A DNA stretch of 64,000 nucleotides from an uncultured Chloroflexia bacterium (GCA_963728205.1 CAVSIV010000001.1:672001-736000), one strand, 5' to 3'; positions 16,267 to 61,006 are shown, numbered from the stretch's first letter. The notes: generated by a model from the letters alone, not told the origin. Made by a program: numbers and translations.

Positions 16267-16289
16267 GACGTCACCCCCTCAGGGAGTCG

Positions 16290-17240: not shown

Positions 17241-17384
17241 CGGCTGCTCCGCTTCGGCCCGGCCCGGGCGAATCTAGATGAGGCACCGGCAGGATGGCGT
17301 ACGTGTGAACGGGCTCTCGGTGCGCGGAACGATAGTCAACCCGAAACACGCATGTAAAGGGCCCCCGCGTCCCCGAGGCATGGG

Positions 17385-18215: not shown

Positions 18216-18386
18216 CGCGCACCGCCGACCGTCGTGCTCGCTGGGGCGTCACATGGTCGCGGATCCTGTCAAGGAGCGCCCGCCGGCGGCGAGCGAGCGG
18301 GACCGGGCGCAAACGGGCCGAGGCGCGCGGTGGATACGTGCGCTCCTCGGCGATGCGTCCGAGCGCGGGTTGCCCATCGCAATCGC

Positions 18387-18445
18387 TTGACGGGTGCGCC
18401 CCGTGCCGCTACATCGAATGGAATATTCCGCGTGTCATGACTCGG
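18387..18445 (+). promoter_or_regulatory. Putative sigma70 promoter (TTGACG-N17-TACATC) plus GTCATGAC dyad
   Basis: The same layout recurs upstream of the paralogous SBP gene. Confidence 0.4.
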
Positions 18446-18482
18446 ATAGCACCACACGGATAGCACCAGAGGGGACGGCAGG

Positions 18483-20357
18483 ATGGACCACTCGAGCTAC
18501 TGGAACCGGCGCCGCTTCGGCCGGCGCGCGGCCATGCGCGGTGCCGGACTGGGTGCCGCCGGCCTGGCGGGGGCCGCCTTGATCGGCTGTGGCGGGGGCA
18601 ATGGTGGGGGCGGCGACAGTGCGGGCGGCGGGGCCACCGTCCCGGCGGGCCAGCTCGTCGGCACCGCGGCCGCGGGGCAGGGCACGGCCGGGGCGAACGC
18701 CACCGCCGTCGCGAAGGACCAGGTCCGCCTCAAGCCCGGCATCTACGACGGCGCGGTTGCCGCATCGCCCGCCGAGGCGAACCCGATGGTCAACGGCAAG
18801 CGCGGCGGCACGCTGCTCATGCGCTACCTCGACCCGCCGCGCATGGACCTCAACCGCACGCTGTCGTGCACCATCTACACGACGCTCAACCACACCAACA
18901 ACAAGCTGGTCCGTGGGCGCACCGGCGCCAACGCGCCGCTCTTCAACGTGGACCTGGAGCCCGACCTCGCCGAGTCGTGGGAGGTCGTCGACAACGGCGC
19001 CCAGTTCAACTTCAAGCTGCGCAAGGGCGTGAAGACGCACAACGTCGCCCCGCTCAACGGCCGCGAGTTCACGTCCGAGGACGTGCTGGCGGGCTACGGC
19101 ATGTACCAGAAGGGCGGCAGTCAGAAGGACGTCTTCTCTCCCGTCGACTCGATGACGGCACCGGATCCGTACACCGTCGTCTTCAAGCTCAAGGAGCCGA
19201 TGTCCGACTTCCCCGCAACGATCGCGTCGTGGGCCTTCGTCTACATGAAGGAGTTCGTGGACGACGATGACCTGCGGCAGAAGCAGGCCGCCGGCACAGG
19301 GCCGTTCATCCAGAAGGAGTGGACGCGCAAGGAGCGCTCGGTCTTCGAGCGACACCCGGACTACTTCGAGAAGGGGCTGCCCTTCGTCGACGGCGTCATC
19401 ACCACGGCGCAGGACGACCTGAACACGCTGCGCGCCAGCTACCAGACCGACCACCTCTTCGAGTGGACCGCGCGCGACGACGCCGACCTGCAGGACATGC
19501 TCAAGTCCCGCGGCGACACCATGGTCGCGACGAAGTTCCCGATCGCGCGCGGCGCGAACGTCAACGGCTTCCAGTTCCAGATGAAGAACAAGACCTTCCA
19601 GGACGAGCGCGTCCGCCACGCCCTGTCGCTCGCGTTCGACCGCAACGGATACGACCAGGCGCAGAACGCCGGCGACAACTCGAACCCTGAAGGTCCGTAT
19701 TCGAACTCGCCCATGCCGTGGCCGTACCTCTTCGACGCCTACCCGACCGCCAAGGCGAACGGCCAGTGGTACCAGTACGACCCGGACCAGGCATCGAAGC
19801 TGATGCAGGCGGCCGGCTACACGAAGGACAAGCCGCTCAGCTTCACGCTCAAGTCGTACTACAACGCCACGCCCATGTCGGAAGTCATGGTGCCGGGCAT
19901 CAACCAGAGCCTTCCCGAGGTCAAGATCACGTTCCTGAAGGTCGACAACCCGACCCACGTGACGCTGATGTCGGACCGGAACTTCGAGGAGGCGGTCGGC
20001 TTCCTGTGGGGGCCGCCCGCATACCCGATGGACCAGTGGATCTACCCCTTCTACCACTCCACGGGGAGCACCAACTACGGAAGCATCAACGACTCGACGC
20101 TGGACGGTCTGCTCGTGAAGCAGCGCCAGGCGACCGACGCGGCGGCGAAGAAGGAGGTCTGGCAGCAGATCTACGCGCGCATCCACGACCAGGTCTACCA
20201 GGCGTGGTTCCCGGAGCCGCGCATTCGCGTCGCGTGGCAGAACTACATGCTGAACTACCGCTACCACGCGTTCATGGGCAGCTACACCTGCTACGCGGCC
20301 GACCAGTCCCGAGCGATCTGGCTCGACGACGGTGCACCGGGCGTGAACCGAACCTAG
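18483..20357 (+). CDS. ABC transporter family 5 substrate-binding lipoprotein (Tat)
   Basis: RRAAMRG twin-arginine leader, LIGC lipobox, EPDLAESWE, GTGPF, DERVRHALS. Confidence 0.9.
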   Translation: MDHSSYWNRRRFGRRAAMRGAGLGAAGLAGAALIGCGGGNGGGGDSAGGGATVPAGQLVGTAAAGQGTAGANATAVAKDQVRLKPGIYDGAVAASPAEANPMVNGKRGGTLLMRYLDPPRMDLNRTLSCTIYTTLNHTNNKLVRGRTGANAPLFNVDLEPDLAESWEVVDNGAQFNFKLRKGVKTHNVAPLNGREFTSEDVLAGYGMYQKGGSQKDVFSPVDSMTAPDPYTVVFKLKEPMSDFPATIASWAFVYMKEFVDDDDLRQKQAAGTGPFIQKEWTRKERSVFERHPDYFEKGLPFVDGVITTAQDDLNTLRASYQTDHLFEWTARDDADLQDMLKSRGDTMVATKFPIARGANVNGFQFQMKNKTFQDERVRHALSLAFDRNGYDQAQNAGDNSNPEGPYSNSPMPWPYLFDAYPTAKANGQWYQYDPDQASKLMQAAGYTKDKPLSFTLKSYYNATPMSEVMVPGINQSLPEVKITFLKVDNPTHVTLMSDRNFEEAVGFLWGPPAYPMDQWIYPFYHSTGSTNYGSINDSTLDGLLVKQRQATDAAAKKEVWQQIYARIHDQVYQAWFPEPRIRVAWQNYMLNYRYHAFMGSYTCYAADQSRAIWLDDGAPGVNRT

Positions 20358-20393
20358 CGAGGTCGCGCCGCAACAGCCGGCGCGACGATAACG

Positions 20394-20427
20394 GCGGGGC
20401 CCGGCGCGCAGCGCCGGGCCCCGCTTC
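20394..20427 (+). terminator. Putative intrinsic terminator hairpin
   Basis: GCGGGGCCCGGCGC-GCA-GCGCCGGGCCCCGC followed by TTC. Confidence 0.5.
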
Positions 20428-20466
20428 GTATCTCGCGATGCCACGGCTCAACGAGCCGGGCAATAC

Positions 20467-20525
20467 TTGACAGCGCATATCACGAGCGTGTACATCGCTG
20501 CGATATCGCGACTGTCATGACACGA
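20467..20525 (+). promoter_or_regulatory. Putative sigma70 promoter (TTGACA-N18-TACATC) plus TGTCATGACA dyad
   Basis: Consensus -35; downstream dyad shared with 18387-18445. Confidence 0.45.
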
Positions 20526-20555
20526 GGCGGTGCGAAGCAGAGGGGACAGCAACTG

Positions 20556-22427
20556 ATGGCAGAGTCCAACTACTGGGTCCGCCGGTCTGTCGGCCGGCGG
20601 GCGGTACTGCGCGGCGCCGGCCTGGGAACGGCCGGACTTGCGGGGGCTGCGCTGATCGGGTGTGGCGGCGGTCAGAGCGGACAGGGCGCCGAGTCCGGCC
20701 AGGCCGGGGCAACGGTGTCGACGGGGCAGATCGTGTCGTCGGCGACCGCGGCGGCCACGTCCGCGAACGCGACCCCCGTTCCCGCAGACCAGGTGCGGCT
20801 GAAGCCGGGGATCTACGAGGGGCCGGTCGCGCCGTCTCCAGCCGAGGCGAACCCCAAGGTCAACGGCAAGCGCGGTGGCACGCTCCTGATGCGGTACCTC
20901 GACCCCCCGCGCATGGACATCAACCGCACGCTCTCGTGCACGATCTACTCAACGCTGAACCTCACGAACAACAAGCTCGTTCGCGGGAAGACCGGTGCGA
21001 ACGCGCCGCTGTTCAACGTGGATCTCGAACCGGACCTCGCCGAGTCCTGGGAGGCGCTGGACGGGAACACGCAGTTCACGTTCAAGCTGCGCAAGGGCGT
21101 GAAGACGCACAACGTCGCACCACTGAACGGGCGCGAGTTCACGTCCGAGGACGTGCTGGCCGGATACGGGATGTACAAGGACGGCGGGAGCCAGAAGGAC
21201 GTCTTCTCGACCGTCGAGTCGATGACGGCGCCGGACCCGTACACGGTCGTTTTCAAGCTCAGCGGTCCGATGTCGGACTTCCCGGCAACCCTGGCCTCCT
21301 GGGGCTTCGTCTACATGAAGGAGTTCGTGGACGACGAGGACCTGCGGCAGAAGCAGGCCGCCGGCACGGGGCCGTTCATCCAGAAGGAGTGGACGCGCAA
21401 GGAGCGCTCGGTCTTCGAGCGGCACCCTGACTACTTCGAGGACGGTCTCCCGTTCGTCGACGAGGTCATCGACACCGCGCAGGACGACCTGAACACGCTG
21501 CGCGCCAGCTTCCAGACGGACCACCTCTTCGAGTGGACGCATCGCGACGACGCGGACGCGGAGGACATGTTCAAGGCGCGCGGCGACACGATGGTCGCCA
21601 CGAAGTTCCCGACCTCGCGCGGCGCAAACGTCAACGGGTTCCAGTTCCAGATGAAGAACCCGACGTACCAGGATGAGCGCGTGCGCCACGCGCTCTCCCT
21701 GGCGCTCGACCGCGACGGGTTCGACGCCGCCTACAACGCGGGCGACAACCAGAACCCCGAGGGTGCGTACTCGAACGCGCCCATGCCGTGGCCGTACCTC
21801 TACGACGCCTACCCCACGGCCAAGGTGAACGGCCAGTGGTACAAGTACGACCCCACAGAGGCGTCAAAGCTGATGCAGGCCGCGGGCTACACGAAGGACA
21901 ACCCGCTCGCGTTCACGCTGAAGTCGTACTACTACGCGACCGCGCTCTCGGAGGTCGTCGTTCCGGGCATCAACCAGAGTCTGCCCGAAGTGAACATCAC
22001 GTGGCAGAAGGTCGACAACCCGACGCATGTCACGCTGATGTCCGATCGCAACTTCGATTCGGCCGTGGGCTTCCTCTGGGGCCCCGCCGGATTCGCGATG
22101 GATCAGTGGATCTACCCCTTCTATCACTCGAAGGGAGGCACGAACTACGGGAGCATCAACGACTCGCAGCTCGACGACCTGCTCATCAAGCAGCGGGAGG
22201 CGTCGGAACTGGACGCGAAGAAGGAGATCTGGCGGCAGGTCTGGGACCGCATCCACGACAAGGTGTACCAGGCCTGGTTCCCGGAGGCGCTGCGGCGCGT
22301 GTCGTGGCACAACTACATGCTGAACTACCGGTACCACGGATTCATGGGCAGCTTCGTCTGCTACACGTCGGACCAGGCACGGGCGATCTGGCTCGACGAC
22401 GGCGCGCCCGGCGTGAACCGCACCTAG
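20556..22427 (+). CDS. ABC transporter family 5 substrate-binding lipoprotein (Tat), paralog of 18483-20357
   Basis: RRAVLRG leader, LIGC lipobox; long identical stretches with the upstream SBP. Confidence 0.9.
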   Translation: MAESNYWVRRSVGRRAVLRGAGLGTAGLAGAALIGCGGGQSGQGAESGQAGATVSTGQIVSSATAAATSANATPVPADQVRLKPGIYEGPVAPSPAEANPKVNGKRGGTLLMRYLDPPRMDINRTLSCTIYSTLNLTNNKLVRGKTGANAPLFNVDLEPDLAESWEALDGNTQFTFKLRKGVKTHNVAPLNGREFTSEDVLAGYGMYKDGGSQKDVFSTVESMTAPDPYTVVFKLSGPMSDFPATLASWGFVYMKEFVDDEDLRQKQAAGTGPFIQKEWTRKERSVFERHPDYFEDGLPFVDEVIDTAQDDLNTLRASFQTDHLFEWTHRDDADAEDMFKARGDTMVATKFPTSRGANVNGFQFQMKNPTYQDERVRHALSLALDRDGFDAAYNAGDNQNPEGAYSNAPMPWPYLYDAYPTAKVNGQWYKYDPTEASKLMQAAGYTKDNPLAFTLKSYYYATALSEVVVPGINQSLPEVNITWQKVDNPTHVTLMSDRNFDSAVGFLWGPAGFAMDQWIYPFYHSKGGTNYGSINDSQLDDLLIKQREASELDAKKEIWRQVWDRIHDKVYQAWFPEALRRVSWHNYMLNYRYHGFMGSFVCYTSDQARAIWLDDGAPGVNRT

Positions 22428-22515: not shown

Positions 22516-23436
22516 CTAGGGCTCGTCGATCACCGGGTTCTCGAGCTCGCCGAGGCCGGTGATCGCGACGCGCACGCGGTCACCGTGCGTCAGCCACTCG
22601 CGCGGGTCGCGCGCCTGCCCGACGCCGGACGGCGTGCCGGTGAACACGATGTCGCCGGGCCGCAGGGTCATCGCCGTCGAGATGTAGGCGATCAGCGACG
22701 GGATGTCGAAGATGAGGTCGCCCGTCGTCGACTCCTGCTTCAGGACATCGTTCACCCATGTCCGCAGCGTGAGCGCCGCCGGGTCGGGCACCTCGTCGCG
22801 CGTCGCGATCCACGGGCCGGTCGGGCCGTGCGTGTCAAAGCCCTTGCCCATCGTCCAGGTGGCGGCGTGGCGCTGGAAGTCGCGCACGGAGACGTCGTTG
22901 CCGTTCATGTAGCCCGCGACGCAGTCGAGCGCGACGTCCGCCGAGACGTTGCGGGCGTCGCGGCCGATCACGAAGACGAGCTCGCCCTCCCAGTCGACCA
23001 TGCTGCTGGCGCGGGGCACATGGATGGGGCGGCCGGGGCCGCTGATCGCCGTGTCGACCTTCGTGAAGACGATGGGGCGCTCGGGCAGCGTCGCGCCGGT
23101 CTCCGCCGCATGCGCGCGGTAGTTGAGCCCGATGGCGAGCGCCTTGCCTGGGCGCGGGATCGGCGCCTCGAAGCGGAAGCCGGGCTCCGCAACGTCGAAT
23201 AACACGCCGCCGGCGCGCAGGGCGTCGGAATCCCGCGCGGCCCGCCCGGCCGCGTCGTTCAGCGCCGCGCGCGCGGTGTCGAGGCCGGCATCGCCCAGCG
23301 CCAGCAGCGGGATCATCTCCGTGGGCAGCAGCGCGCCGGTAGCCGCGGCCGCGCGCGCGAGGTCGACGACGCGGGCGTCGTCGAGCATCGCCCCGGTGCG
23401 CGTCGTGCCGCGGGAGGTGTAGGTGACGAGGCGCAT
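22516..23436 (-). CDS. Fumarylacetoacetate hydrolase family protein
   Basis: IGLNYRAHAAE, DWEGEL, NDVSVRDFQ, GKGFDT, GDIVFTGTPSGVG. Confidence 0.92.
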   Translation of the reverse strand: MRLVTYTSRGTTRTGAMLDDARVVDLARAAAATGALLPTEMIPLLALGDAGLDTARAALNDAAGRAARDSDALRAGGVLFDVAEPGFRFEAPIPRPGKALAIGLNYRAHAAETGATLPERPIVFTKVDTAISGPGRPIHVPRASSMVDWEGELVFVIGRDARNVSADVALDCVAGYMNGNDVSVRDFQRHAATWTMGKGFDTHGPTGPWIATRDEVPDPAALTLRTWVNDVLKQESTTGDLIFDIPSLIAYISTAMTLRPGDIVFTGTPSGVGQARDPREWLTHGDRVRVAITGLGELENPVIDEP

Positions 23437-23560
23437 TCGGTGCTCCATCCAGCGCAGACCGCGGACCGCAGGCCGCGGCCGGTGACGGATGGTAGCGGAA
23501 CGGCGGCCGGCGGGTGGGCGGAGCGGGTGGCCGCCGCGGCCGGGGGCGCCGCCGCGGACG

Positions 23561-24157
23561 TCAGGCGGAGCGCGCCTCGGCGGCGGAGGCGGCGTCGAGC
23601 GCGGCGCGCAGCGCGTGCAGCGCACGCATCTGCGCCGCGCGCGCGGCAGCGGCGGTGCAACCGACGCGCTCCGCGATCTCGTCGTACGACAGGCCGTCGA
23701 TCACCCGCAGCCGCGTGATCCAGCGCTGCCGCGCCGTCAACGCCGAAAACGCGATCTCGATGCGCGCGTCGACCTGATCCGCCAGCGCCTGCTCCTCGGC
23801 AGACGGCTCGATCGGGTCGGGGCTCGCGTCGAGCGGGGAGCTCTGCTTCCGCGTCCGGTAGAAGTCCTTGATCGTGTTCGAGGCGATGTGGAAGAGCCAC
23901 ACATTGAACGGGCGCGACTGGTCGCGCCGGTCGATCGCGCGCAGCGCCTTGAGGAACGTGAGCTGGAGCACGTCCTCGGCGTCCTCGGGTTGCGGGAGCC
24001 GCCGCCGCGCGTAGGCCAGCAGGTCGCGCCGGTAGGCGGCGCAGAGCGTGCCGAAGGCGTCGCGGTCGCCGCCCGCCGCACGCGCCGAGAGGTCGCGCAC
24101 GGCGTCGGGCGTCAGCTCGGCCGCAACCGGCCCGAAGGGGAGGATGGCGTCGCTCAT
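23561..24157 (-). CDS. ECF sigma-70 factor (198 aa)
   Basis: Region 2 DAEDVLQLTFLKA..FNVWLFHIASNTIKDFYR; region 4 LTARQR..GLSYDEIAERVG..RALHALR. Confidence 0.9.
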   Translation of the reverse strand: MSDAILPFGPVAAELTPDAVRDLSARAAGGDRDAFGTLCAAYRRDLLAYARRRLPQPEDAEDVLQLTFLKALRAIDRRDQSRPFNVWLFHIASNTIKDFYRTRKQSSPLDASPDPIEPSAEEQALADQVDARIEIAFSALTARQRWITRLRVIDGLSYDEIAERVGCTAAAARAAQMRALHALRAALDAASAAEARSA

Positions 24158-24260
24158 ACCTGGAGAATCGGCTGAGTCGGCGCTGAAGATTACCCGCGCT
24201 CCCCTCTGCGGAACTGGCCGGACCGGCCGACAGGGGCCGCGTGACGCGCCGGGACGTGCG

Positions 24261-24289
24261 AAGGCGGGGGCCGTGGGCGCCCCCGCCTT
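24261..24289 (-). terminator. Hairpin after membrane gene 1 (repeated at 27455-27483)
   Basis: AAGGCGGGGGC ... GCCCCCGCCTT. Confidence 0.5.
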
Positions 24290-24312
24290 GGTGCTGAGCC
24301 GCGGTCCGCCGC

Positions 24313-25146
24313 CTATGCGGCGAGCCGTGCCCGCTTCGCCGCGATGAAGTCGGCGACGTCCTCGGAGGAGGCCTCGACCTCGGCGAGGAGCCGCTCGTAG
24401 TCGCGGATGAGCGCGTTGGCGCTGGCCGCGTCGAGCATGGCGCCCTTCGCCTTGGAGGCTCCCTGGCGGAGGGCCAGGGCGAGCACGCCAACCGGAGCGG
24501 TGAAGGCGGCGAAGCCGAGCGGACCGAGCTCTCGCCAGGAGAGTGCGAGCCCGAGGGCGACGAGGCCCATCACCGCGAAGTGGACGGCGAGCCAGAGGTA
24601 GTTGTCCTTGACGACCTTTCCGAGCGCCTGTCCGGTGGTGCACGAAATCATCGCGCCCACCAGCGTCATGTTGACGATCCACATCGCCAGCCCCGCCGCG
24701 ACGGCGGCGACGACGAGGGTGCCGGCGCTCTCCGGCATGAGCCGGGTGAGCCCCGCGTAGACCCCCGCCGCCGCGGTGCCGGCGAGCACCAGGACGGCGG
24801 AGTTGTAGGCGAGGCGGGAGACCGGCTTGTGGCGGAAGAGCCACGCGGCCAGCCCGACGACGATCGCGAGCGGCACGGCCGCCCCGACGCCGTAGAGGAT
24901 CCCGCCCCCGACGATCGCGGCCGCGGAGACGGACGCGCGCGTCTGGGTGAAGAGCTGGGTGCCCTGGCGTTCGAGCACCGCGGCGAGCGCCAGCATCAGC
25001 AGGAGCCCGCCCCATTCCGGCGGCCGGAGGAAGACCAGGAGGCCTGCTCCGGCGACCGCGCCGAATCCCGTCACCCCGTACAGGAGGGCCTGTGCCCTGC
25101 TCCGGGCGAGGGATGAGATCCACCGTGTGGTGGGACTCTCAGCCAT
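24313..25146 (-). CDS. Multi-TM putative membrane sensor with short C-terminal helix, copy 1
   Basis: About 7-8 TM helices; RLAYNSA and WIVNMTLV motifs; amphipathic tail; GAAAGG RBS. Confidence 0.85.
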   Translation of the reverse strand: MAESPTTRWISSLARSRAQALLYGVTGFGAVAGAGLLVFLRPPEWGGLLLMLALAAVLERQGTQLFTQTRASVSAAAIVGGGILYGVGAAVPLAIVVGLAAWLFRHKPVSRLAYNSAVLVLAGTAAAGVYAGLTRLMPESAGTLVVAAVAAGLAMWIVNMTLVGAMISCTTGQALGKVVKDNYLWLAVHFAVMGLVALGLALSWRELGPLGFAAFTAPVGVLALALRQGASKAKGAMLDAASANALIRDYERLLAEVEASSEDVADFIAAKRARLAA

Positions 25147-25185
25147 GGTGTCGACCTTTCAGCACAACACTCGCTCGGAGGGTGA

Positions 25186-26985
25186 CTAGTCCCAGGTGAT
25201 GGCATCCCAGGTGATGGCGTCCCACGTGATGCTGTCCCAGGTGATCGAGTCCCACGTGATGGCGTCCCACGTGATGGAGTCCCACGTGATCGAGTCCCAC
25301 GTGATGGAGTCCCACGTGATCGAGTCCGGCGACGCCGGCTTGTTCTGGATCGAGCCGTCGCTGCCGATCCACAGGCTCTTCGGGAGCCCCTGGTTCGCGG
25401 CGCCCTGGCTCGGGCCGAACACGGCATCGTAGGCATTCAGCGCCGGCGCGTTGGAGCTGGGGAACGTGTCAGCCGTCCCCGTCAGCTGGGCCTTCACCTG
25501 GTCCGGCGTGAGGGACGGGTTGTGCTGGAGCATCAGCGCGACGGTGCCGGAGACGACCGGGGCCGACTCGGAGGTGCCGCTGAGCATCATGTAGTGCTCG
25601 CCGACACGAAGCTTCGGGTTCTGCAGGTAGAGCAGCGACGGCTTGTTGCCCGTCGTCGCGATCAGGTGCCAGCCCGGGGCAACCAGGTCGGGCTTCTGGA
25701 ACCCGTCGTGCGTCGTGCCGTACGTCGACCACGACGCCAGCGTGTCGTCCGTCGTCTCGAGCGTCGCATTGTCGCTGAAGGCGCCGACGGAGATCACGTA
25801 CGGGTCGTTCGCGGGTGGGTGGTCCGTCGCGAACGCGTCGCTCGTGCCGAGGTTGCCCTCCGACGAGACGACGACGATGCCGTGGAACCACAGCTGCTCA
25901 ATCGCGGCGTCGAGCGGGCTCGTGAAGAAGCTCTCCGGCGTCGACTGCGTGAACGACATGTTCGCGACGCGGATGTTGTACTTCGCCTGGTTGTCCAGCA
26001 CGTACTCGAGACCCGCGAGGACGTCGCCGAGCTCGATGCCCTTTTCGAACGTTCCCACCTGGACGTCGACGATGTTCGCGTCCGGGGCGATACCCATGTA
26101 GCGCCCCTGGCTGTCAGCGCCGTTGCCCGCGATCACGCCGGCCGTGTGCGTGCCATGCCCGTACGGGTCGCGGACGCCCGCGAGCGCCGTGTCGTTCGGG
26201 GTGTAGCGCGCGACCACGCGGCCGCCGAAGTCGGAGCCGACGGCGTGGCTGACGCCGGTGTCGATGACCGCAACGCCGATGCCCTTACCGGTGACTCCCT
26301 CGTCCCAGACGTCGGTTGCGCCGACGACCTGCGGGAACACGGACACGACGTCGGTGTAGTCACCGCGCTGCTTCCCGTCGGGGAGCCTGGAGCCGAGGAT
26401 CGAGGCGCGGTCCTGGTGCGTACCCTTGGGGCCGGCGGCTGCCTTGGGGGCCGGCGTTGCCTTCGGCGCGGGGGCCGCCTTGGTGCCCGGGCCAACCTTC
26501 GGAGCGCGCGCCGCCTTCTTATCCGGTCCGGCCTTCGGGGCCGGAGTCGGGGTCGGGGTCGGCGTGCCCCCCGCCAGCAGCGACGTCCAGTTGTTGCGGT
26601 CTCGTGGGCCGCGGCCCGTCATCTCGATGTTCGAGTTGAGGCTGATCGACTTGACCGACGTGTTGCCGGCCAGCGCGTCGAGCTGGTCGACGGGGATGGT
26701 CGCCTCGACGGCGGGAATGATGTGGTACTGCTGCGACACGGTGCCGCCGGCCGCCTCGACGGCGGCAGCGGTGGCATCGGTATCGCCGGTGGACTGGATG
26801 ATGACGGCGACGAAGCCGTTGTCCTGGTTGGCGGTGTCGTACACGGCGGCGTTGACGTTGCTCGGGCCGGCGGCGCGGGCGGGGGCCTGCGACGCGGGCC
26901 CGAGCATGAGCGCGACCGCGACGAGCGCGACCAGGACGGTGAGGAAGACCGGCCAGCGCCGGCCGGTGAGCTTGTTCAGGACCAC
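25186..26985 (-). CDS. Secreted S8 (subtilisin-like) peptidase with 9 C-terminal (S/A)ITWD repeats, copy 1
   Basis: Signal peptide and prodomain; triad VAVIDTG / YGHGTH / SGTSES; GTG start after GGAAAG. Confidence 0.92.
   Translation of the reverse strand: MVLNKLTGRRWPVFLTVLVALVAVALMLGPASQAPARAAGPSNVNAAVYDTANQDNGFVAVIIQSTGDTDATAAAVEAAGGTVSQQYHIIPAVEATIPVDQLDALAGNTSVKSISLNSNIEMTGRGPRDRNNWTSLLAGGTPTPTPTPAPKAGPDKKAARAPKVGPGTKAAPAPKATPAPKAAAGPKGTHQDRASILGSRLPDGKQRGDYTDVVSVFPQVVGATDVWDEGVTGKGIGVAVIDTGVSHAVGSDFGGRVVARYTPNDTALAGVRDPYGHGTHTAGVIAGNGADSQGRYMGIAPDANIVDVQVGTFEKGIELGDVLAGLEYVLDNQAKYNIRVANMSFTQSTPESFFTSPLDAAIEQLWFHGIVVVSSEGNLGTSDAFATDHPPANDPYVISVGAFSDNATLETTDDTLASWSTYGTTHDGFQKPDLVAPGWHLIATTGNKPSLLYLQNPKLRVGEHYMMLSGTSESAPVVSGTVALMLQHNPSLTPDQVKAQLTGTADTFPSSNAPALNAYDAVFGPSQGAANQGLPKSLWIGSDGSIQNKPASPDSITWDSITWDSITWDSITWDAITWDSITWDSITWDAITWDAITWD
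25189..25323 (-). repeat. 9 x 15-bp coding tandem repeat = (S/A)ITWD
   Basis: Units differ only at synonymous positions and at Ser/Ala. Confidence 0.95.
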
Positions 26986-27058
26986 TGCACTTTCCAATCG
27001 CTGTTGGCGTTGGCGAATGCGTCACCGCTCGGCGCGTGCGTCGCGCCTCGCGGCGGGT

Positions 27059-27156
27059 CCCCGTTCGGCAGCCCGGCTACCCGTGGCTCTGTGTGAGCCG
27101 GGAGGGCCCGTGGCTTTGCGTCCCCCGGTTCCCCGGGGTTTGCCGTTGTCGTGGGG
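27059..27156 (-). ncRNA. c-di-GMP-I (GEMM) riboswitch, proximal type, upstream of peptidase 1
   Basis: CGACAACGGCAAACCCCGG-GGAA-CCGGGGGACGCAAAGCCACGGGCCC...GGGTAGCCGGGCTGCCG. Confidence 0.9.
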
Positions 27157-27258
27157 CCAGCTGGACTAGATGTGTGGCATCGTCTCGACTCCTCCGTCTC
27201 GCGGCCGCCTGGCGGCGGCTGCGCCCCTGATCCGAGGAGGGCGGAGGCATCGGGCCTC

Positions 27259-27362
27259 GCAACCTTCGGTAGCCCGGCCGTCATGACCCCTCGTACGAGG
27301 GGCGGTAGACCCGTGGGCTTTGCGCCACCCGGTTTCCCGGGCTTTGCCATTTCTCGGATTGC
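27259..27362 (-). ncRNA. c-di-GMP-I riboswitch, distal type, upstream of peptidase 1
   Basis: CGAGAAATGGCAAAGCCCGG-GAAA-CCGGGTGGCGCAAAGCCCACGGGTC...GACGGCCGGGCTACCG. Confidence 0.88.
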
Positions 27363-27410
27363 CGCTTGCCAGGGACGGCTCGCCGTTGCGGCGGGGCGTC
27401 CCTTACCCGG

Positions 27411-27440
27411 GAAGACGAACGACGGGCACTCCGCGTGACG
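27411..27440 (-). promoter_or_regulatory. ECF-type promoter CGTCACG-N16-CGTCTTC
   Basis: One of 5 copies with identical 16-nt spacing. Confidence 0.7.
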
Positions 27441-27506
27441 CGCCGGGACGTGCGAAGGCGGGGGCCGTGGGCGCCCCCGCCTTGGTGCTGAGCCGCGGTC
27501 CGCCGC

Positions 27507-28341
27507 CTATGCGGCGAGCCGTGCCCGCTTCGCCGCGATGAAGTCGGCGACGTCCTCGGAGGAGGCCTCGACCTCGGCGAGGAGCCGCTCGTAGTCGCGG
27601 ATGAGCGCGTTGGCGCTGGCCGCGTCGAGCATGGCGCCCTTCGCCTTGGAGGCTCCCTGGCGGAGGGCCAGGGCGAGCACGCCAACCGGAGCGGTGAAGG
27701 CGGCGAAGCCGAGCGGACCGAGCTCTCGCCAGGAGAGTGCGAGCCCGAGGGCGACGAGGCCCATCACCGCGAAGTGGACGGCGAGCCAGAGGTAGTTGTC
27801 CTTGACGACCTTTCCGAGCGCCTGTCCGGTGGTGCACGAGATCATCGCGCCCACCAGCGTCATGTTGACGATCCACATCGCCAGCCCCGCCGCGACGGCG
27901 GCGACGACGAGGGTGCCGGCGCTCTCCGGCATGAGCCGGGTGAGCCCCGCGTAGACCCCCGCCGCCGCGGTGCCGGCGAGCACCAGGACGGCGGAGTTGT
28001 AGGCGAGGCGGGAGACCGGCTTGTGGCGGAAGAGCCACGCGGCCAGCCCGACGACGATCGCGAGCGGCACGGCCGCCCCGACGCCGTAGAGGATCCCCGC
28101 CCCCGACGATCGCGGCCGCGGAGACGGACGCGCGCGTCTGGGTGAAGAGCTGGGTGCCCTGGCGTTCGAGCACCGCGGCGAGCGCCAGCATCAGCAGGAG
28201 CCCGCCCCATTCCGGCGGCCGGAGGAAGACCAGGAGGCCTGCTCCGGCGACCGCGCCAAATCCCGTCACCCCGTACAGGAGGGCCTGTGCCCTGCTCCGG
28301 GCGAGGGATGAGAGCCACCCGGTGGTGGAAGTCTCAGCCAT
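27507..28341 (-). CDS. Multi-TM putative membrane sensor, copy 2 (one extra C in a C-run near 28095)
   Basis: Nearly identical to 24313-25146 apart from the first few codons; GGATCCCCG versus GGATCCCG. Confidence 0.8.
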
Positions 28342-28382
28342 TGTGTCGACCTTTCAGCGCAACACTCACGCTCGGAGGGTGA

Positions 28383-30068
28383 CTAGTCCCAGGTAATCGA
28401 GTCCCAGGTGATGGCGTCCCACGTGATGCTGTCCCAGGTGATCGAGTCCCACGTGATGGCGTCCCACGTGATCGAGTCCCACGTGATGCTGTCCCAGGTG
28501 ATCGAGTCCCACGTGATCGAGTCCCACGTGATCGACGCCGGGCCGGCGGGGATGTTCTGGATCGAGCCGTCGCTGCCGATCCACAGGCTGCGCGGCAGCC
28601 CCTGGTTCGCGAGGCTCGCGTCCGCGGTGAACACCGCGCCGTACGCGTCGAGCGCCGGTGCGGTCGAGCCGGTGAAGGCCTTGCCCGTGTCGACGATCCG
28701 CGCCTTCACCTGGTCGGGCGTGAGCGACGGGTTCTGCTGCAGCATCAGGGCGACGGTGCCGGAGACCACCGGGGCCGCCGACGAGGTGCCGCTGAGCTTC
28801 ATGTAGCGTGAGCCGACACGCAGGTCCGGGTTGTCAAGGTACAGCAGCGACATCGCGTTGCCGGTGGTGGCGATCAGGCGCCATCCCGGGGCGATCACGT
28901 CCGGCTTCTGGAAGCCGTCGTGCGTCGTGCCGCGGCTCGACCAGTCCTTGAGGAAGTCGTCGGATGTGTCGAGCGTGGCGTTGTCGCTGAAGGCGCCCAC
29001 GGTGATGACGTACGGGTCGTTCGCTGGCGGGTGGTCCGTCACGTAGGCGTCGGACGTCCCGCGGTTGCCCGCAGCGGTCACGACGACGATGCCGTGGAAC
29101 CAGAGCTGCTCGACGGCGGCGTCGAGCGGGCTCGTGAAGAAGCTCTCCGGCGTCGACTGCGTGAACGAGAGGTTCGCGACGCGGATGTTGTACTGGGCCT
29201 GGTGGTCCAGCGTGTACTGGAGTCCGGCGATCACGTCGCCCAGCTTGATGCCCAGGGCGTAGTCACCGACGCGGACCGCGATGATGTTCGCGTCCGGTGC
29301 GATGCCCATGTAGCGCCCAAGGCTGTCGGTGCCGTCGCCGGCGACGATGCCGGCCACGTGCGTGCCGTGACCGTAGGCGTCGCTGCTGGTCAGTCCGCTC
29401 GGGGCGTAGCTCGCGACGATGCGGTTGCCGAAGTCGTTGCGACCGACGTCGTTCACGCCGGTGTCGATGATGGCGACCCCGACGCCCTGGCCCATGACGC
29501 CTTCATCCCAGGCGTCGGTGGCGCCGACGACCTGCGGGAACACCGAGACCACGTCCGTGTAGCGACCGCGCGCCTTCCCGTTCGGGAGGCTCTGGCCGAG
29601 GATCGAGTACCGGTCGGCCTTCGGCGTCGCGCTGTCGGTCGTGGGCGTGGGCGTCGCCGTGGCCTTGAGCAGCGACTTCCAGTCCGGGGCACCGAGACCG
29701 GTCGGCTGGATGTCCGAGTTCAGGCTGATCGACTTGACCGACGGGTTGGCGGCCAGCGCGTCGAGCTGGTCGACGGGGATGGTCGCCTCGACGGCGGGGA
29801 TGATGTGGAACTGCTGCGAGACCGTGCCGCCGGCAGTCGCGACGGCCGCGGCGGTGGCATCGGTATCGCCGGTGGACTGGATGATGACGGCGACGAAGCC
29901 GTTGTCCTGGTTGGCGGGGTCGAGGACGGCCGCGTGCACGTTGCTCGGGCCGGCCGCGCGGGCGGGTGCCTGCGAGGCGGGGCCGAGCATGAGCGCGACC
30001 GCGACGAGCGCGACCAGGACGGTGAGGAAGACCGGCCAGCGCCGGCCGGTGAGCTTGTTCAGGACCAC
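28383..30068 (-). CDS. Secreted S8 peptidase with 10 C-terminal (S/A)ITWD repeats, copy 2
   Basis: Signal peptide; triad VAIIDTG / YGHGTH / SGTSSA; AAGN oxyanion motif. Confidence 0.92.
   Translation of the reverse strand: MVLNKLTGRRWPVFLTVLVALVAVALMLGPASQAPARAAGPSNVHAAVLDPANQDNGFVAVIIQSTGDTDATAAAVATAGGTVSQQFHIIPAVEATIPVDQLDALAANPSVKSISLNSDIQPTGLGAPDWKSLLKATATPTPTTDSATPKADRYSILGQSLPNGKARGRYTDVVSVFPQVVGATDAWDEGVMGQGVGVAIIDTGVNDVGRNDFGNRIVASYAPSGLTSSDAYGHGTHVAGIVAGDGTDSLGRYMGIAPDANIIAVRVGDYALGIKLGDVIAGLQYTLDHQAQYNIRVANLSFTQSTPESFFTSPLDAAVEQLWFHGIVVVTAAGNRGTSDAYVTDHPPANDPYVITVGAFSDNATLDTSDDFLKDWSSRGTTHDGFQKPDVIAPGWRLIATTGNAMSLLYLDNPDLRVGSRYMKLSGTSSAAPVVSGTVALMLQQNPSLTPDQVKARIVDTGKAFTGSTAPALDAYGAVFTADASLANQGLPRSLWIGSDGSIQNIPAGPASITWDSITWDSITWDSITWDSITWDAITWDSITWDSITWDAITWDSITWD
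28386..28535 (-). repeat. 10 x 15-bp coding tandem repeat = (S/A)ITWD
   Basis: Synonymous codon variation among units. Confidence 0.95.
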
Positions 30069-30141
30069 TGCACTTTCCAATCGCTGTTGGCGTTGGCGAA
30101 TGCGTCACCGCTCGGCGCGTGCGTCGCGCCTCGCGGCGGGT

Positions 30142-30239
30142 CCCCGTTCGGCAGCCCGGCTACCCGTGGCTCTGTGTGAGCCGGGAGGGCCCGTGGCTTT
30201 GCGTCCCCCGGTTCCCCGGGGTTTGCCGTTGTCGTGGGG
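30142..30239 (-). ncRNA. c-di-GMP-I riboswitch, proximal type, upstream of peptidase 2
   Basis: Same sequence as 27059-27156. Confidence 0.9.
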
Positions 30240-30340
30240 CCGGGAGCTGGTTACGGGCTCGTCATGTTCCGAACCTCCGCTTCGCGACGCCCGGCGGCGT
30301 CTGCGCCCCTGATCCGAGGAAGACGGAGGCGGGCAGCCTC

Positions 30341-30443
30341 GCAACTTCGGTAGCCCGGCCGTCATGGCCCCTCGTACAAGGGGCGGTAGACCCGTGGGCT
30401 TTGCGCCACCCGGTTTCCCGGGCTTTGCCATTTCTCGGATTGC
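30341..30443 (-). ncRNA. c-di-GMP-I riboswitch, distal type, upstream of peptidase 2
   Basis: GGCAAAGCCCGG-GAAA-CCGGGTGGCGCAAAGCC...GGCCGGGCTACCG. Confidence 0.88.
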
Positions 30444-30491
30444 CGCTTGCCAGGGACGGCTCGCCGTTGCGGCGGGGCGTCCCTTACCCGG

Positions 30492-30521
30492 GAAGACGAA
30501 CGTCAGACCGGGTTTGTGACG
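30492..30521 (-). promoter_or_regulatory. ECF-type promoter CGTCACA-N16-CGTCTTC
   Basis: Conserved bipartite motif; spacer sequence differs from the other copies. Confidence 0.72.
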
Positions 30522-30588
30522 TATGTCGCGGGCGCCGTCGACCCTGAGCCGTCCGGCGCCCGCGCGTTTCATGTTGATCAGCCGCCGG

Positions 30589-30795
30589 CTAATCCCAGGT
30601 GATCGAGAACGTGCCGTAGCTCGGCCCGGGGGCCGGAGCGGGCGTCGAGGCGGCCGGGGGCCCGATCTGGCTCGACGAGGGCTTGGCCGCCGAGCTGACA
30701 CCCGGCGAGCCGAACAGCGAAGCACCGGCGAGGATTCCGCCGGCGACGACGGCGACGACGATGCGGTGGAGGTGACCAAACTTGCGCAGGACCAT
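30589..30795 (-). CDS. 68-aa secreted mini-protein ending in SITWD (candidate peptide precursor)
   Basis: MVLRKFGHLHR + hydrophobic stretch + SSA-A, Pro/Ser/Ala linker, ...YGTFSITWD-stop; start context matches the peptidases; has its own riboswitch pair and promoter. Confidence 0.85.
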   Translation of the reverse strand: MVLRKFGHLHRIVVAVVAGGILAGASLFGSPGVSSAAKPSSSQIGPPAASTPAPAPGPSYGTFSITWD

Positions 30796-30838
30796 TGCAC
30801 TGTCCCCATTCCGGATCATGAGACTCGTGGTGCGTGGT

Positions 30839-30937
30839 CCCCGTTCGGTAGCCCGGCTACCCGTGGCTCGGTGAGAGCCGGGAGGGCCCGTGGCTTTGCG
30901 TCCCCCGGTTCCCCGGGGTTTGCCGTTTGTCGTGGGG
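30839..30937 (-). ncRNA. c-di-GMP-I riboswitch, proximal type, upstream of the mini-protein
   Basis: GGCAAACCCCGG-GGAA-CCGGGGGACGCAAAGCC...GGTAGCCGGGCTACCG. Confidence 0.9.
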
Positions 30938-31040
30938 TACGTGACTCAGGTGCGACTGGTCATCGGCCCCTCCGCTCCTGCAGCCCCCGGTGCGGGTCGC
31001 TGCTCCTCAGAATCCGAGGAAGACGGAGGCGGGAGGCCTC

Positions 31041-31143
31041 GCAATCTTCGGTAGCCCGGCCGTCATGACCCCTCGACGAGGGGCGGTAGACCCGTGGGCT
31101 TTGCGCCACCCGGTTTCCCGGGTTTTGCCGTTTCTCGGATTGC
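31041..31143 (-). ncRNA. c-di-GMP-I riboswitch, distal type, upstream of the mini-protein
   Basis: GGCAAAACCCGG-GAAA-CCGGGTGGCGCAAAGCC...GGCCGGGCTACCG. Confidence 0.88.
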
Positions 31144-31190
31144 CTGCATGCGCGGGACGCGCGACCTCCGTCGAGAGTCCCGTCACCGGA

Positions 31191-31220
31191 GAAGACGAAC
31201 GGGTACCGGCCGGTGTGACG
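31191..31220 (-). promoter_or_regulatory. ECF-type promoter CGTCACA-N16-CGTCTTC
   Basis: Conserved bipartite motif. Confidence 0.72.
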
Positions 31221-31340
31221 CGAACGGGCGAGGATGGCGCGCACCGGCGCGGGCGCCGGTGGCGAGACGCGGGCGCACCGCCCGCGTCACGCGCGACGCC
31301 GCCGCTCCACGCGTGCACCGGACGAACCGAGGGGCGGGGG

Positions 31341-32174
31341 CTAGGCGGCGACCTGCGGGCGGTGCGTGGCGATGAACTCCGCGACGTCCTCCGAGGAGGA
31401 CTCCACCTCGGCCAGCAGCCGCTCGTACTCCGCGATCAGCTGGTTCGCGCTCGCGGCGTCGAGCATGGCGCCCTGCGCCTTCGACGCGCCCTGGCGCAGC
31501 GCCAGCGCCAGCACGCCGACCGGCGCGGTGAACGCCGCGAAGCCGAGCATCCCCAGTTCGCGCCATGACAGCGCGAGTCCGAGCGCAACGAGTCCCATCA
31601 CGGCGAAGTGCACCGCGAGCCACAGGTAGTTCTCGCGGATGACGGCGAGCAGCGGCTGCCCGGTCGTGAGCGCGATCATCGCGCCGACCAGGCTCATGTT
31701 GACGGTCCACATCGCGATGCCGGCGCCGACGGCCGCGACCACGAAGGTCGCCGCGCTCGCGGGCAGGAGCGACGTGATCAGCGCGTACGTCCCGGCGGAC
31801 GCCGCGCCGGCCAGGATCAGCACCGCCGAGTTGTAGGTCAGCCGAGAGAACGGCTTGTGCCGGAAGAGCCAGGCCGCGAGGCCCACGGCGATCGCCAGCG
31901 GGACCGCGGCGCCGACGCCGTAGAGGATGCCGGCACCCATGATCGCCGCGGCTGAGACCGAGGCGCGCGTCTGCGTGAAGAGCTGCGTGCCCTGCCGCTC
32001 GATGACAGCCGCGAGCGCGATGGTGAGCAGGAGGCCGCCCCACTCGCGGGGCTGGAGGAAGGCGAGGAAGCCGAGGCCGGCGAGCGCGCCGATGACGGAG
32101 ACCGCCACGAGCAGCACCTGCGGGCGGTTGGCGAGGAGCGACGGCTGCGGCCGCGCGTCGGTCGTCGTTGCCAT
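31341..32174 (-). CDS. Multi-TM putative membrane sensor, copy 3 (diverged)
   Basis: 277 aa, collinear with copy 1 (ERQGTQLFTQTRASVSAAAI, NYLWLAVHF, EYERLLAEVE); GAGAGGG RBS. Confidence 0.87.
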   Translation of the reverse strand: MATTTDARPQPSLLANRPQVLLVAVSVIGALAGLGFLAFLQPREWGGLLLTIALAAVIERQGTQLFTQTRASVSAAAIMGAGILYGVGAAVPLAIAVGLAAWLFRHKPFSRLTYNSAVLILAGAASAGTYALITSLLPASAATFVVAAVGAGIAMWTVNMSLVGAMIALTTGQPLLAVIRENYLWLAVHFAVMGLVALGLALSWRELGMLGFAAFTAPVGVLALALRQGASKAQGAMLDAASANQLIAEYERLLAEVESSSEDVAEFIATHRPQVAA

Positions 32175-32334: not shown

Positions 32335-32754
32335 CTAGCCGAACGGCAACGTGCCCCGTTCGGCCAGCAGCCGCATGATTTCGAACCCGCCGACCAGGCC
32401 CGAGACCACCGACAGCGCCACGATCAGCCCCGTCTGGCCGGCGCGCATCAGCGCGCTCGCGCCCGCCGCGGCGCCCCCGGCGGTCGTTGCCTTGTCGCCG
32501 GCGCGGAGGTAGCGCACCTCCTGCTTCGCCGGCCGGCCCTCGATCCCCATCGCGTCATACGCGGTGCGGTTCGTGGGGTTCGAGAGGACGTCGAACGCCC
32601 TGCGCAGTCGGTCGACCTTGTTGGGGTCTGCGACGTGCACGCGCATGAGGCGGCCGTACGCCGCGCGGATCACGGGATCCGACGCACGCGGCGAGACTTC
32701 CAGCTCCTCGTAGAGCAGGAACCCCGGCTGCTCATAGTCGTACTGAAGGGACAT
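32335..32754 (-). CDS. J-domain-like protein lacking HPD, with C-terminal TM helix
   Basis: LYEELEVSPRAS..VIRAAYGRLMRVH(VAD)P..AFDVLSNP..RTAYD; C-terminal hydrophobic segment. Confidence 0.75.
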   Translation of the reverse strand: MSLQYDYEQPGFLLYEELEVSPRASDPVIRAAYGRLMRVHVADPNKVDRLRRAFDVLSNPTNRTAYDAMGIEGRPAKQEVRYLRAGDKATTAGGAAAGASALMRAGQTGLIVALSVVSGLVGGFEIMRLLAERGTLPFG

Positions 32755-32828
32755 CTTCGCCCCCGAGCCGCACCGGCTGGCAAACAAGATCATCGGCACG
32801 GGCGAGGCGATCGCCCATGCCGACGGGT

Positions 32829-32928
32829 CCCGTTCGGCGGCCCGGCTGCCCGCGACCACCTGCGCGGCGGCCGGGAGGGCCCGTGGCTTTGCGTCCCCCG
32901 GTTCCCCGGGGTTTGCCGTTTCGCGGGG
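32829..32928 (-). ncRNA. c-di-GMP-I riboswitch (single) upstream of the J-like gene
   Basis: GGCAAACCCCGG-GGAA-CCGGGGGACGCAAAGCCACGGGCCC...GGGCAGCCGGGCCGCCG. Confidence 0.88.
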
Positions 32929-33018
32929 CGCGCCTCTCAACGCGCCGTGCACACCCGCCCGACGCGCGCTTGCACGCCGCATCCTGGAGAGAGCCTGCTG
33001 CTCCCCCTCGCTACGGAA

Positions 33019-60396: not shown

Positions 60397-60400
60397 GGCT

Positions 60401-60862: not shown

Positions 60863-61006
60863 GGCGGTCAGTCCGCCCGTCTCGCGCCGCGGCCGGCGCG
60901 CGCGCCGAGCGCGCCTGCTCGCCGCTGGTCTCGCAGGCAGCCGCTCACGTCACCTCCGCATGAGCGGGGAATGCGCCGTCGTGCGGCCGATTCCCCTCTC
61001 GTTCCA

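Follow-up and report, generated by a model that had tools for sequence, protein, structure and literature searches.

Why should a secreted protease end in a row of nearly identical five-residue units? The question is posed by a stretch of 64,000 nucleotides (hereafter the window; G+C content 71.6%) from an uncultured Chloroflexia bacterium (GCA_963728205.1, CAVSIV010000001.1:672001-736000), which carries on its minus strand two paralogous S8 peptidase genes, at 25186..26997 and 28383..30080. The encoded proteins, P0001 (603 amino acids; Pfam PF00082, E = 2.9e-42) and P0002 (565 amino acids; PF00082, E = 1e-43), are 71% identical to each other, and both terminate in a tail built from the unit [S/A]ITWD. 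The S8 enzyme itself is ordinary; what is new here is a secreted subtilase with an undescribed tryptophan (Trp) pentapeptide tail that is inherited together with a membrane protein resembling MASE9 sensor modules (hereafter the partner). In our reading, the tail may couple the protease to this partner as a functional link (probability of about 0.5), presumably through docking of one on the other.

The pentapeptide arrays of the two proteases

Array 1 occupies positions 25189-25323 of the minus strand (P0001 residues 559-603) and consists of nine units, in the order four SITWD, one AITWD, two SITWD and two AITWD, directly followed by the stop codon TAG (25186-25188). Array 2, at 28386-28535 on the same strand (P0002 residues 516-565), comprises ten units (five SITWD, one AITWD, two SITWD, one AITWD and one SITWD) and is likewise directly followed by TAG (28383-28385). 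The arrays are preceded by the linkers ...IQNKPASPD in P0001 and ...IQNIPAGPA in P0002. Analysis with Tandem Repeats Finder recovered a period of 15 nucleotides (nt) in both cases (9.3 copies with 86% matches at 25188-25327, and 10.1 copies with 83% matches at 28385-28535), and an additional higher-order period of 45 nt in array 2. Together with translation and a codon tally, this analysis confirmed the array coordinates, unit counts, codon list and linkers reported in a preliminary description of this DNA.

The 19 units correspond to eight distinct 15-mers but to only two peptides. Position 1 is encoded by TCG (nine units), TCC (two), AGC (three) or GCC (five), and serine codons of both the TCN and the AGC type are therefore present in the arrays; Ile is encoded by ATC (18) or ATT (1), Thr by ACG (12) or ACC (7), Trp by TGG (19), and Asp by GAC (18) or GAT (1). 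Across codons 2-5, variation is confined to the three sites that allow synonymous change, the last bases of the Ile, Thr and Asp codons, and all three vary; the nine residue-altering sites are constant. By hand calculation, the probability that three variable sites among 12 fall exactly on the three synonymous ones is 1/220, a figure to be read with the caveat that duplication of the 45-nt block copied some of this variation, so that the events are partly non-independent. The motif ITWD occurs ten times in the reading frame of each array and 0-1 times in all other frames of the window, and chance is therefore excluded as an explanation of the arrays. A plus-strand reading of the same DNA (open reading frames [ORFs] 25190-25432 and 28387-28806, with high G+C at third codon positions) was also considered and rejected, as the S8 homology is continuous into the minus-strand arrays.

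The Trp tail in the wider subtilase family

Searched by HMMER with P0002 as the query, a set of 1.84 billion cluster representatives yielded 66,646 matches at E ≤0.001, of which we examined the best 150, all ≤50% identical to each other. At least three Trp residues in exact five-residue register near the C terminus were present in 142 of these 150 representatives, and at least five in 130; only 29 of 3000 shuffles of the same proteins reached three or more. Among the eight representatives without a Trp run, at least two end inside the catalytic domain and look truncated. These results bear on the earlier proposal that selection acts on the tail peptide rather than on the DNA. Comparison at the sequence level supports it, because the arrays vary only at synonymous sites and between S and A, and because the family keeps the Trp register; the family comparison is a stronger argument than the array codons.

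The set was then enlarged to 199 proteins with 50 proteins found by a tail-region query (and hence selected for the tail) and with both window proteins; a tail is present in 191 of the 199. Weighted per protein over the 191 tails, position 1 is S (54%) or A (13%), position 2 is V (51%) or I (30%), position 3 is T (26%), N (24%) or S (19%), and position 5 is N (31%), D (29%), E (11%), S (11%) or G (11%). The family consensus is S-[VI]-[TNS]-W-[NDE], with Trp as the sole invariant position (position 4 being Trp by construction of the unit definition), and the units of some relatives read SASWN, SSSWN or AAHWD. Unit counts peak at 8 (39 proteins), 10 (30), 7 (25) and 9 (22), with a range of 3 to 37; even the closest relatives differ, having anywhere from 4 to at least 21 units. 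In 113 of the 191 proteins the tail ends ≤6 residues from the C terminus. The tails range from homogeneous (commonest unit ≥70%; 104/191) to heterogeneous (commonest unit ≤40%; 45/191), and one subfamily keeps an ordered series of differing units across its members (DITWE / AFDWQ / GITWE ...; …DITWDSITWEDITWEAFDWQGITWEDITWE…). Tailed proteases were found in lineages labelled Chloroflexota, Solirubrobacteraceae and Gaiellaceae.

The same genome encodes a third tailed S8 protein (contig C1, ~60237-61386, minus strand, equivalent to L009 6238-7387), whose tail consists of six SSYWD units followed by AHGDN, the tailed ORF spanning 60237-61100. By tblastn, its catalytic domain is split between two frames near L009 7065-7100, and the N-terminal part was not detected. 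The L009 ORF 6837-7859 was considered as this missing part and rejected, as it shows no similarity and tblastn shows a frameshift instead.

The preliminary description had named free drift of homolog tails as one observation that would speak against its view of the tail. Such drift was seen in part: positions 1, 3 and 5 drift, but the Trp and, mostly, the V/I at position 2 do not. Its further proposal, that the enzyme cleaves its own tail after each Asp into many identical pentapeptides, found no support. Since Asp fills position 5 in only 29% of cases, an Asp-specific cut cannot explain the family trait; in addition, 45 of the 191 tails are heterogeneous, and the units of one subfamily are ordered and non-identical. 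Subtilases rarely cut after Asp. Judged from the sequences compared, Asp-specific release is unlikely to be what selection maintains on the tail.

Database searches and structure prediction of the tail

Searches of Pfam and NCBIfam matched only the S8 domain of the tailed proteases and left the tail unmatched. All PDB sequence matches of P0002 stop near residue 474, and none reaches the tail; a PDB fold search matched the S8 domain and the propeptide only, the tail in effect not being queried on its own. A protein atlas look-up of the tail returned only unnamed clusters (0.90-0.92), and a full-text literature search, with subscription-only papers outside its scope, returned no paper on the tail motifs or on S8-sensor pairing. 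The tail is therefore an undescribed module, named in no database searched nor in the literature covered. For one homolog, NCBIfam TIGR02953 (MxKDx pentapeptide protein) scored 20 bits, below its cut-off of 41, and we rejected this match as a likeness of period and composition.

A structure prediction of the peptidase together with its tail, as suggested at the outset, was informative for the enzyme and much less so for the tail. In the AlphaFold2 model of P0002 residues 176-565 (102-sequence alignment), the S8 domain has a predicted local distance difference test score (pLDDT) of ~95, and the ten units of the tail have a pLDDT of 34-39, with no confident fold. For P0028, a homolog whose tail is heterogeneous, a model from 42 sequences shows short helical turns and no strands in units one to eight (pLDDT 64-81), and the last 30 residues remained near 30. 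Neither tail was predicted as a β-solenoid in these low-confidence models.

It is conceivable that the units stack into the right-handed quadrilateral β-helix of canonical (Rfr-type) pentapeptide-repeat proteins, four units per coil, to form a rigid stalk or an oligomerisation domain. The period of five would suit this fold, as would the commonest count of eight units, equal to two coils (12 and 16 are also seen), and the V/I present at position 2 in 81% of cases, which with the Trp two residues later makes two inward-facing positions conceivable. However, the AlphaFold2 models show low confidence or helical turns in place of strands, the Pfam pentapeptide families (PF00805 and relatives) gave no match at E ≤0.01 for P0001 and P0002 or at E ≤1 for five homologs, and by inspection the consensus fits the A(D/N)LXX motif in no register. 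Moreover, multiples of four are no more frequent than counts of 7, 9 and 10, and Ala or Ser replaces V/I at position 2 in some relatives (SASWN, SSSWN). We consider this fold very unlikely.

Pairing of tailed protease genes with membrane partners

Each of the two S8 genes in the window is followed, 39-41 nt after its stop codon and on the same strand, by a partner gene, and no terminator-like site was found on the coding strand between S8 gene and partner. This layout is operon-like, and the two genes are probably co-transcribed. Partner gene 1 (24313..25146, minus strand) encodes P0003, a stand-alone MASE9-like membrane module of 277 amino acids. Partner gene 2 (27507..28341, minus strand) is 99% identical to it at the DNA level, and its frame is broken after ~82 codons by one extra G in a G-run (~28095), so that it is either a pseudogene or the product of a homopolymer error in sequencing or assembly. 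The third tailed S8 gene of the genome is directly followed downstream by a gene for a 701-amino acid GGDEF-EAL protein with a weak MASE9 match.

To place this arrangement among close relatives, in which 5 of 41 genomes have a match to P0002 at E ≤1e-30, six loci of other genomes were examined. In the closest relative, a Chloroflexota metagenome-assembled genome (MAG; locus L003), the S8 protein is 61% identical and has a tail of at least 21 AITWD units, and the gene order is that of the window: DnaJ-domain gene, membrane gene, S8 gene and a second membrane gene (product 75% identical to P0003). The gene after the S8 gene encodes a stand-alone partner in L011 and L012, and a PAS-GGDEF protein in L013 and L016. 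Among close relatives, the pairing is thus seen at both window copies, at the third tailed S8 gene, and at L003/L011, L012, L013 and L016. By inspection rather than by Pfam match, a protein with a GGDEF-type motif follows an S8 protein with a partly masked tail in L017, and the ORFs after the S8 gene in L014 resemble HD-GYP and GGDEF proteins.

A wider sample of the phylum comprised 301 genomes, of which 35 have a match at E ≤1e-40 (counting the unpublished genome G308), and the 29 loci returned for other genomes were analyzed. A period-5 Trp tail is present at 21 of these 29 loci. A hidden Markov model (HMM) from alignment A5 detected a MASE9-like ORF 4-142 nt after the S8 stop codon at 14 of the 21 tailed loci, and three further ones (L028, L029 and L046) have a membrane protein with GGDEF or GAF, bringing the partnered loci to 17 of 21. 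The remaining tailed loci have a flank of <700 nt (L030 and L032) or no partner (L026 and L044). None of the eight untailed loci has a partner ORF; the flank available at L037 is only 266 nt long, and two others (L039 and L041) encode S8 homologs that end in a six-residue Trp repeat (TWTGGD / TWTGGQ) and have no adjacent membrane-sensor gene. We describe the contrast between 17/21 and 0/8 as a strong tendency and not as a formal test, since the genomes are related and the HMM was built partly from such partners.

Paralogous pairs within one genome differ in their unit: SITWD and SSYWD in the genome studied here, and AITWD and GIRWD/GIKWD in genome G003. This fits a specific matching of tail and partner, whether the partner docks the tail or binds a ligand derived from it.

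The tail might also retain the enzyme in the cell envelope independently of the partner, through an exposed ladder of Trp residues that binds cell-wall glycan or the membrane interface, the neighboring sensor gene being merely co-regulated. In line with this, the tail lies at the extreme C terminus of exported enzymes that have no transmembrane segment, a variable unit number suits avidity binding, and L026 and L044 are tailed but have no detectable partner. The units of some relatives (SASWN, SSSWN, AAHWD) combine small polar residues with one aromatic residue, a composition that resembles the aromatic platforms of carbohydrate-binding and interface-seeking peptides. Retention alone, however, leaves unexplained both the partner contrast between tailed and untailed loci (17/21 vs. 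0/8) and the keeping of stand-alone partners that lack an output domain, and the ten Asp residues make the present tail strongly acidic, which would disfavor binding to an anionic envelope without cations. For these reasons, we regard partner-independent retention as a doubtful, if possible, explanation.

The partner as a relative of sensor membrane modules

By hydropathy, P0003 is a multi-pass membrane protein with about 7-8 hydrophobic segments and a charged stretch in its C-terminal 50 residues. It has no Pfam or NCBIfam match, and neither P0003 nor its paralog nor the L003 ortholog matches the MASE9 model PF20972 at E ≤10 (cut-off, 24.3 bits). Its relationship to sensors emerged from BLASTP alignments, which matched P0003 to the membrane part of a Gaiellaceae GGDEF-MASE9-HD-GYP protein whose gene follows a tailed S8 gene (MAG locus L004; E = 7e-10) and, from a different Chloroflexota MAG, to a MASE9-PAS-GGDEF-EAL protein (E = 3e-4). 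The aligned L004 sensor region itself hits MASE9 at 28.8 bits, and three of the aligned GGDEF/EAL/HD-GYP sensors match PF20972, at 28.8, 24.1 and 17.2 bits. Furthermore, a profile of five stand-alone proteins aligned by hhalign with the N-terminal regions of six sensors over 210 columns (probability 99.5%, E = 2.6e-23).

Stand-alone forms are few: a near-length search for them returned 21 database proteins at E ≤0.001, of which 20 are unnamed or hypothetical and without a Pfam domain; the remaining one (472 amino acids) has HD-GYP domains. In a second lineage, stand-alone forms are represented by ORFs of 235-237 amino acids that follow SVSWD-tailed S8 genes (L020, L022, L023 and L025). A search for longer homologs of P0003 returned no fused relatives, which is weak evidence; fused relatives were found through the neighboring loci instead. 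On the homology found in these alignments, P0003 is a stand-alone relative of the MASE9-like membrane module that is fused to GGDEF, EAL or HD-GYP domains next to other tailed S8 genes. The partner in the window has no enzymatic output domain.

Given such a partner, the tail could be a multi-copy pro-signal that is cut at every unit, by the protease or by a sister protease and more plausibly after Trp than after Asp, the released pentapeptides (D-S/A-I-T-W) entering the membrane as the ligand of the MASE9-like module. A large hydrophobic residue is a preferred P1 residue of subtilases, which suits a cut after Trp, the sole invariant position of the unit. The homogeneity of 104 of the 191 tails and the absence of a confident AlphaFold2 fold for a homogeneous tail also agree with a pro-signal, as does the unit number, which is free in close relatives (4 to at least 21), as for a precursor whose copies set the dose. 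The units that differ between paralogous pairs of one genome would then act like a specificity code, and ligand binding within the membrane is what the preprint that defines MASE9 proposes (10.1101/2021.11.05.467447). On the other side, a single signal would need neither the 45 heterogeneous tails nor the unit differences that one subfamily keeps in fixed order; among proteins ≤50% identical to each other, counts of 8 and 10 units recur most often; no peptide-modifying or export genes were found by Pfam in the 15 surrounding ORFs; and the Asp-specific version fails at the family level (Asp at position 5, 29%). We judge a pro-signal to be unlikely. Equally unlikely is its more specific form, in which the subtilase would cut after each Trp and the pentapeptides would carry a pair-specific code (SITW-type here, SSYW-type elsewhere in the genome) read by the cognate MASE9-like module. 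If this were true, the cell would measure its own extracellular protease activity or density, which fused relatives would convert into cyclic di-GMP (c-di-GMP), and the tail would represent a new class of protease-encoded autoinducer in monoderm soil bacteria.

A proposed functional link between protease and partner

We favor the tail as a coupling element because of what is conserved: a Trp every five residues with a mostly aliphatic residue two positions before it and small or polar residues at the others, a location at the extreme C terminus, an exported enzyme and a gene for a membrane partner. It is more likely that the tail links protease and sensor than that it serves as the substrate of its own enzyme. 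According to this proposal, the tail would be the part of the exported protease that connects the enzyme to the membrane partner, and it would either hold the mature enzyme at the cell surface beside the partner or be what the partner senses. Extracellular proteolysis and the membrane module would thereby act as one unit, and the partner described here, which lacks an output domain, might serve as a dock or adaptor. We infer both the physical contact of tail and partner and the direction of any signaling between them.

A complex prediction for the tail (P0002 residues 485-565) and P0003 scored 0.00 in two runs, made without controls, and speaks neither for nor against contact. Several observations weigh against such a link. 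The preprint that defines MASE9 describes its external loops as short and poorly conserved and proposes ligand binding inside the membrane (10.1101/2021.11.05.467447), which would leave little obvious surface for the docking of a soluble tail. The link from the partner to Pfam MASE9 is indirect, running through aligned sensors that score near or below the cut-off. Canonical MASE9 genes (Pfam cut-off) were located at 16 loci among 201 genomes of the phylum, and no Trp-tail ORF was found upstream of any of them; the pairing is thus a feature of a divergent subfamily and not of MASE9 generally. In two Solirubrobacteraceae MAGs (L001 and L002) the order is reversed, with a GAF-GGDEF-EAL gene upstream of an S8 gene whose tail is degenerate, and at L026 and L044 no partner was found. 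The sampled genomes are related, so the contrast of 17/21 with 0/8 overstates independence, and the adjacency of the genes can reflect co-regulation alone. Finally, the variation from 4 to at least 21 units among the closest relatives means that no fixed-size interface is required.

Anatomy of the two proteases

P0001 and P0002 share the same order of parts: a hydrophobic segment at the N terminus, a region resembling a propeptide, a linker rich in Thr and Pro, the S8 domain, ~50 residues and the tail. Hydropathy analysis identified one N-terminal hydrophobic segment in each (residues 12-40, followed by ...APARA/AG), which by inspection resembles a signal peptide, and no C-terminal hydrophobic or transmembrane segment in either protein. 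Both match PF00082 (cut-off, 21.8 bits), and the S8 domain of P0002 spans residues 197-466. The catalytic residues are D246/H281/N382/S476 in P0001 and D206/H238/N339/S433 in P0002, with D, H and S invariant in the 102-sequence alignment. A homolog model superposed on PDB entries 9UES and 3AFG with Z scores of 45-46 and a root-mean-square deviation of about 2 Å, indicating the subtilisin α/β fold, and the part of the model equivalent to the propeptide overlies that of ProN-Tk-SP (3AFG; model range 35-458). Both enzymes are thus pre-pro-subtilases with an ordinary S8 catalytic domain, and they are probably exported.

The linker is ~40 residues longer in P0001 than in P0002. The extra part is rich in Pro, Ala and Lys (PTPTPTPAPKAGPDKKAARAPK..., 26398-26607, minus strand) and has an imperfect DNA periodicity of 18 and 36 nt (repeat rows 26424-26538), which P0002 lacks. 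Assignment to the mycosins of the type VII secretion system (NCBIfam TIGR03921) was rejected, as the two proteins score 124 and 136 bits against an equivalog cut-off of 278.75 and have no C-terminal transmembrane anchor.

Tandem duplication and gene neighborhood

The S8 gene and its partner gene form a unit of 3.2 kb that is duplicated in tandem at 24237..30381, positions 24237-27300 corresponding to 27431-30381. The identity between the two copies is a mosaic, with 100% in the part encoding the signal peptide, 66-88% in the catalytic part and 99-100% in the partner gene, which suggests either that the edges underwent gene conversion or that the enzyme part diverged fast, with tail and partner kept alike. 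The preliminary description had mentioned neither this duplication nor the pairing with a membrane-protein gene.

A third partner paralog (31341..32174, minus strand; 277 amino acids, 76% identical to P0003) lies upstream of S8 gene 2. The spacer between them (30381-31341) is given as about 1.2 kb and includes a second copy of the S8 upstream region, in which 30832-31081 matches 27053-27300 at 84%. An ORF assigned to this spacer (30105-30809) has no Pfam match. A small gene for a DnaJ-domain protein (32335-32982, minus strand) is located just upstream of the partner/S8 cluster, as it is in L003 (152-532). After the cluster, the window has a FAA-hydrolase gene (22516-23625) and L003 an extracytoplasmic function (ECF) sigma factor gene. 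On the plus strand, a neighboring pair of solute-binding genes of the SBP_bac_5 family (18483-20357 and 20517-22427) adjoins two minus-strand genes for permeases of the ATP-binding cassette (ABC) type, and the region 15325-22427 represents an uptake set of the peptide/oligopeptide type, a few kb from the proteases.

Pfam analysis of 15 ORFs between 13587 and 34029 identified ABC peptide-uptake components, the FAA hydrolase, the DnaJ-domain protein and a DUF427 protein. Among the same ORFs, no radical S-adenosylmethionine (rSAM), YcaO, cytochrome P450, lanthipeptide, ABC-exporter or other peptide-modifying or export gene was found.

Significance and comparison with known systems

Subtilases are among the best-studied enzymes, yet a large branch of them in uncultured soil lineages carries a module that is unmatched by Pfam, NCBIfam and PDB sequences. 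If the tail and the partner interact, they would represent an unstudied coupling of extracellular proteolysis to membrane signaling, including c-di-GMP turnover, and the tail would offer a first candidate for the input of a MASE9-like domain, for which the defining preprint names no known ligand (10.1101/2021.11.05.467447). In the form seen here, the partner stands alone, the gene unit is duplicated and the SITWD unit is acidic. The window offers a compact test case, in which the partner stands alone without an output domain and a fresh duplication has left tail and partner unchanged and the catalytic domains diverged.

Among characterized proteases, the nearest is Tk-SP of Thermococcus kodakarensis (PDB 3AFG and 9UES), which among solved structures gives the best sequence match to P0002 (E = 1.8e-41, residues 185-470) and also ranks first by fold against the homolog model (Z 45-46, N-terminal propeptide included). 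Tk-SP and the tailed S8 proteins are pre-pro-enzymes with a non-catalytic C-terminal part. The C-terminal domain of Tk-SP is a folded β-jelly roll and not a repeat, however, no PDB match covers the P0002 tail, and Tk-SP is not known to have a partner gene.

With pentapeptide repeat proteins (PF00805, PF13599 and PF13576; MfpA, Qnr and Rfr), the tail shares a tandem five-residue period and recurring hydrophobic positions. It differs from them in that Trp replaces Leu/Phe, and in that A(D/N)LXX and a profile match are both lacking; the low-confidence models show no β-helix. The tail would also be a short extracytoplasmic appendage, whereas the pentapeptide repeat proteins compared act as cytoplasmic DNA mimics.

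The homogeneous tails are similar to multi-core peptide precursors in having tandem identical short units within a secreted protein. Examples of such precursors are the fungal repeat proteins processed by Kex2 and the plant BURP-domain cyclases, in which the core repeats are fused to the enzyme that acts on them. Unlike these, many members of the tail family have non-identical units, and the 15 ORFs analyzed include no modifying genes.

The partner resembles MASE9 (PF20972) in being a multi-pass module with short loops, and it aligns with the membrane domains of GGDEF/EAL/HD-GYP proteins; it differs in that P0003 misses the PF20972 model and has no output domain, and in that canonical MASE9 genes have no tailed S8 neighbor (0/16). 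The words "protease", "peptidase" and "subtilisin" do not appear in the main text of the defining preprint (Galperin and Chou; 10.1101/2021.11.05.467447).

For the arrangement as a whole, the nearest functional analogy is probably the LapD-LapG system. It is an analogy of function only; there is no sequence relation, and the partner described here has no c-di-GMP domain. LapG belongs to the cysteine proteases and has no repeat tail; LapD carries a HAMP domain as well as a periplasmic one. In that system, a GGDEF/EAL membrane protein is encoded together with an extracytoplasmic protease and controls the protease by binding it.

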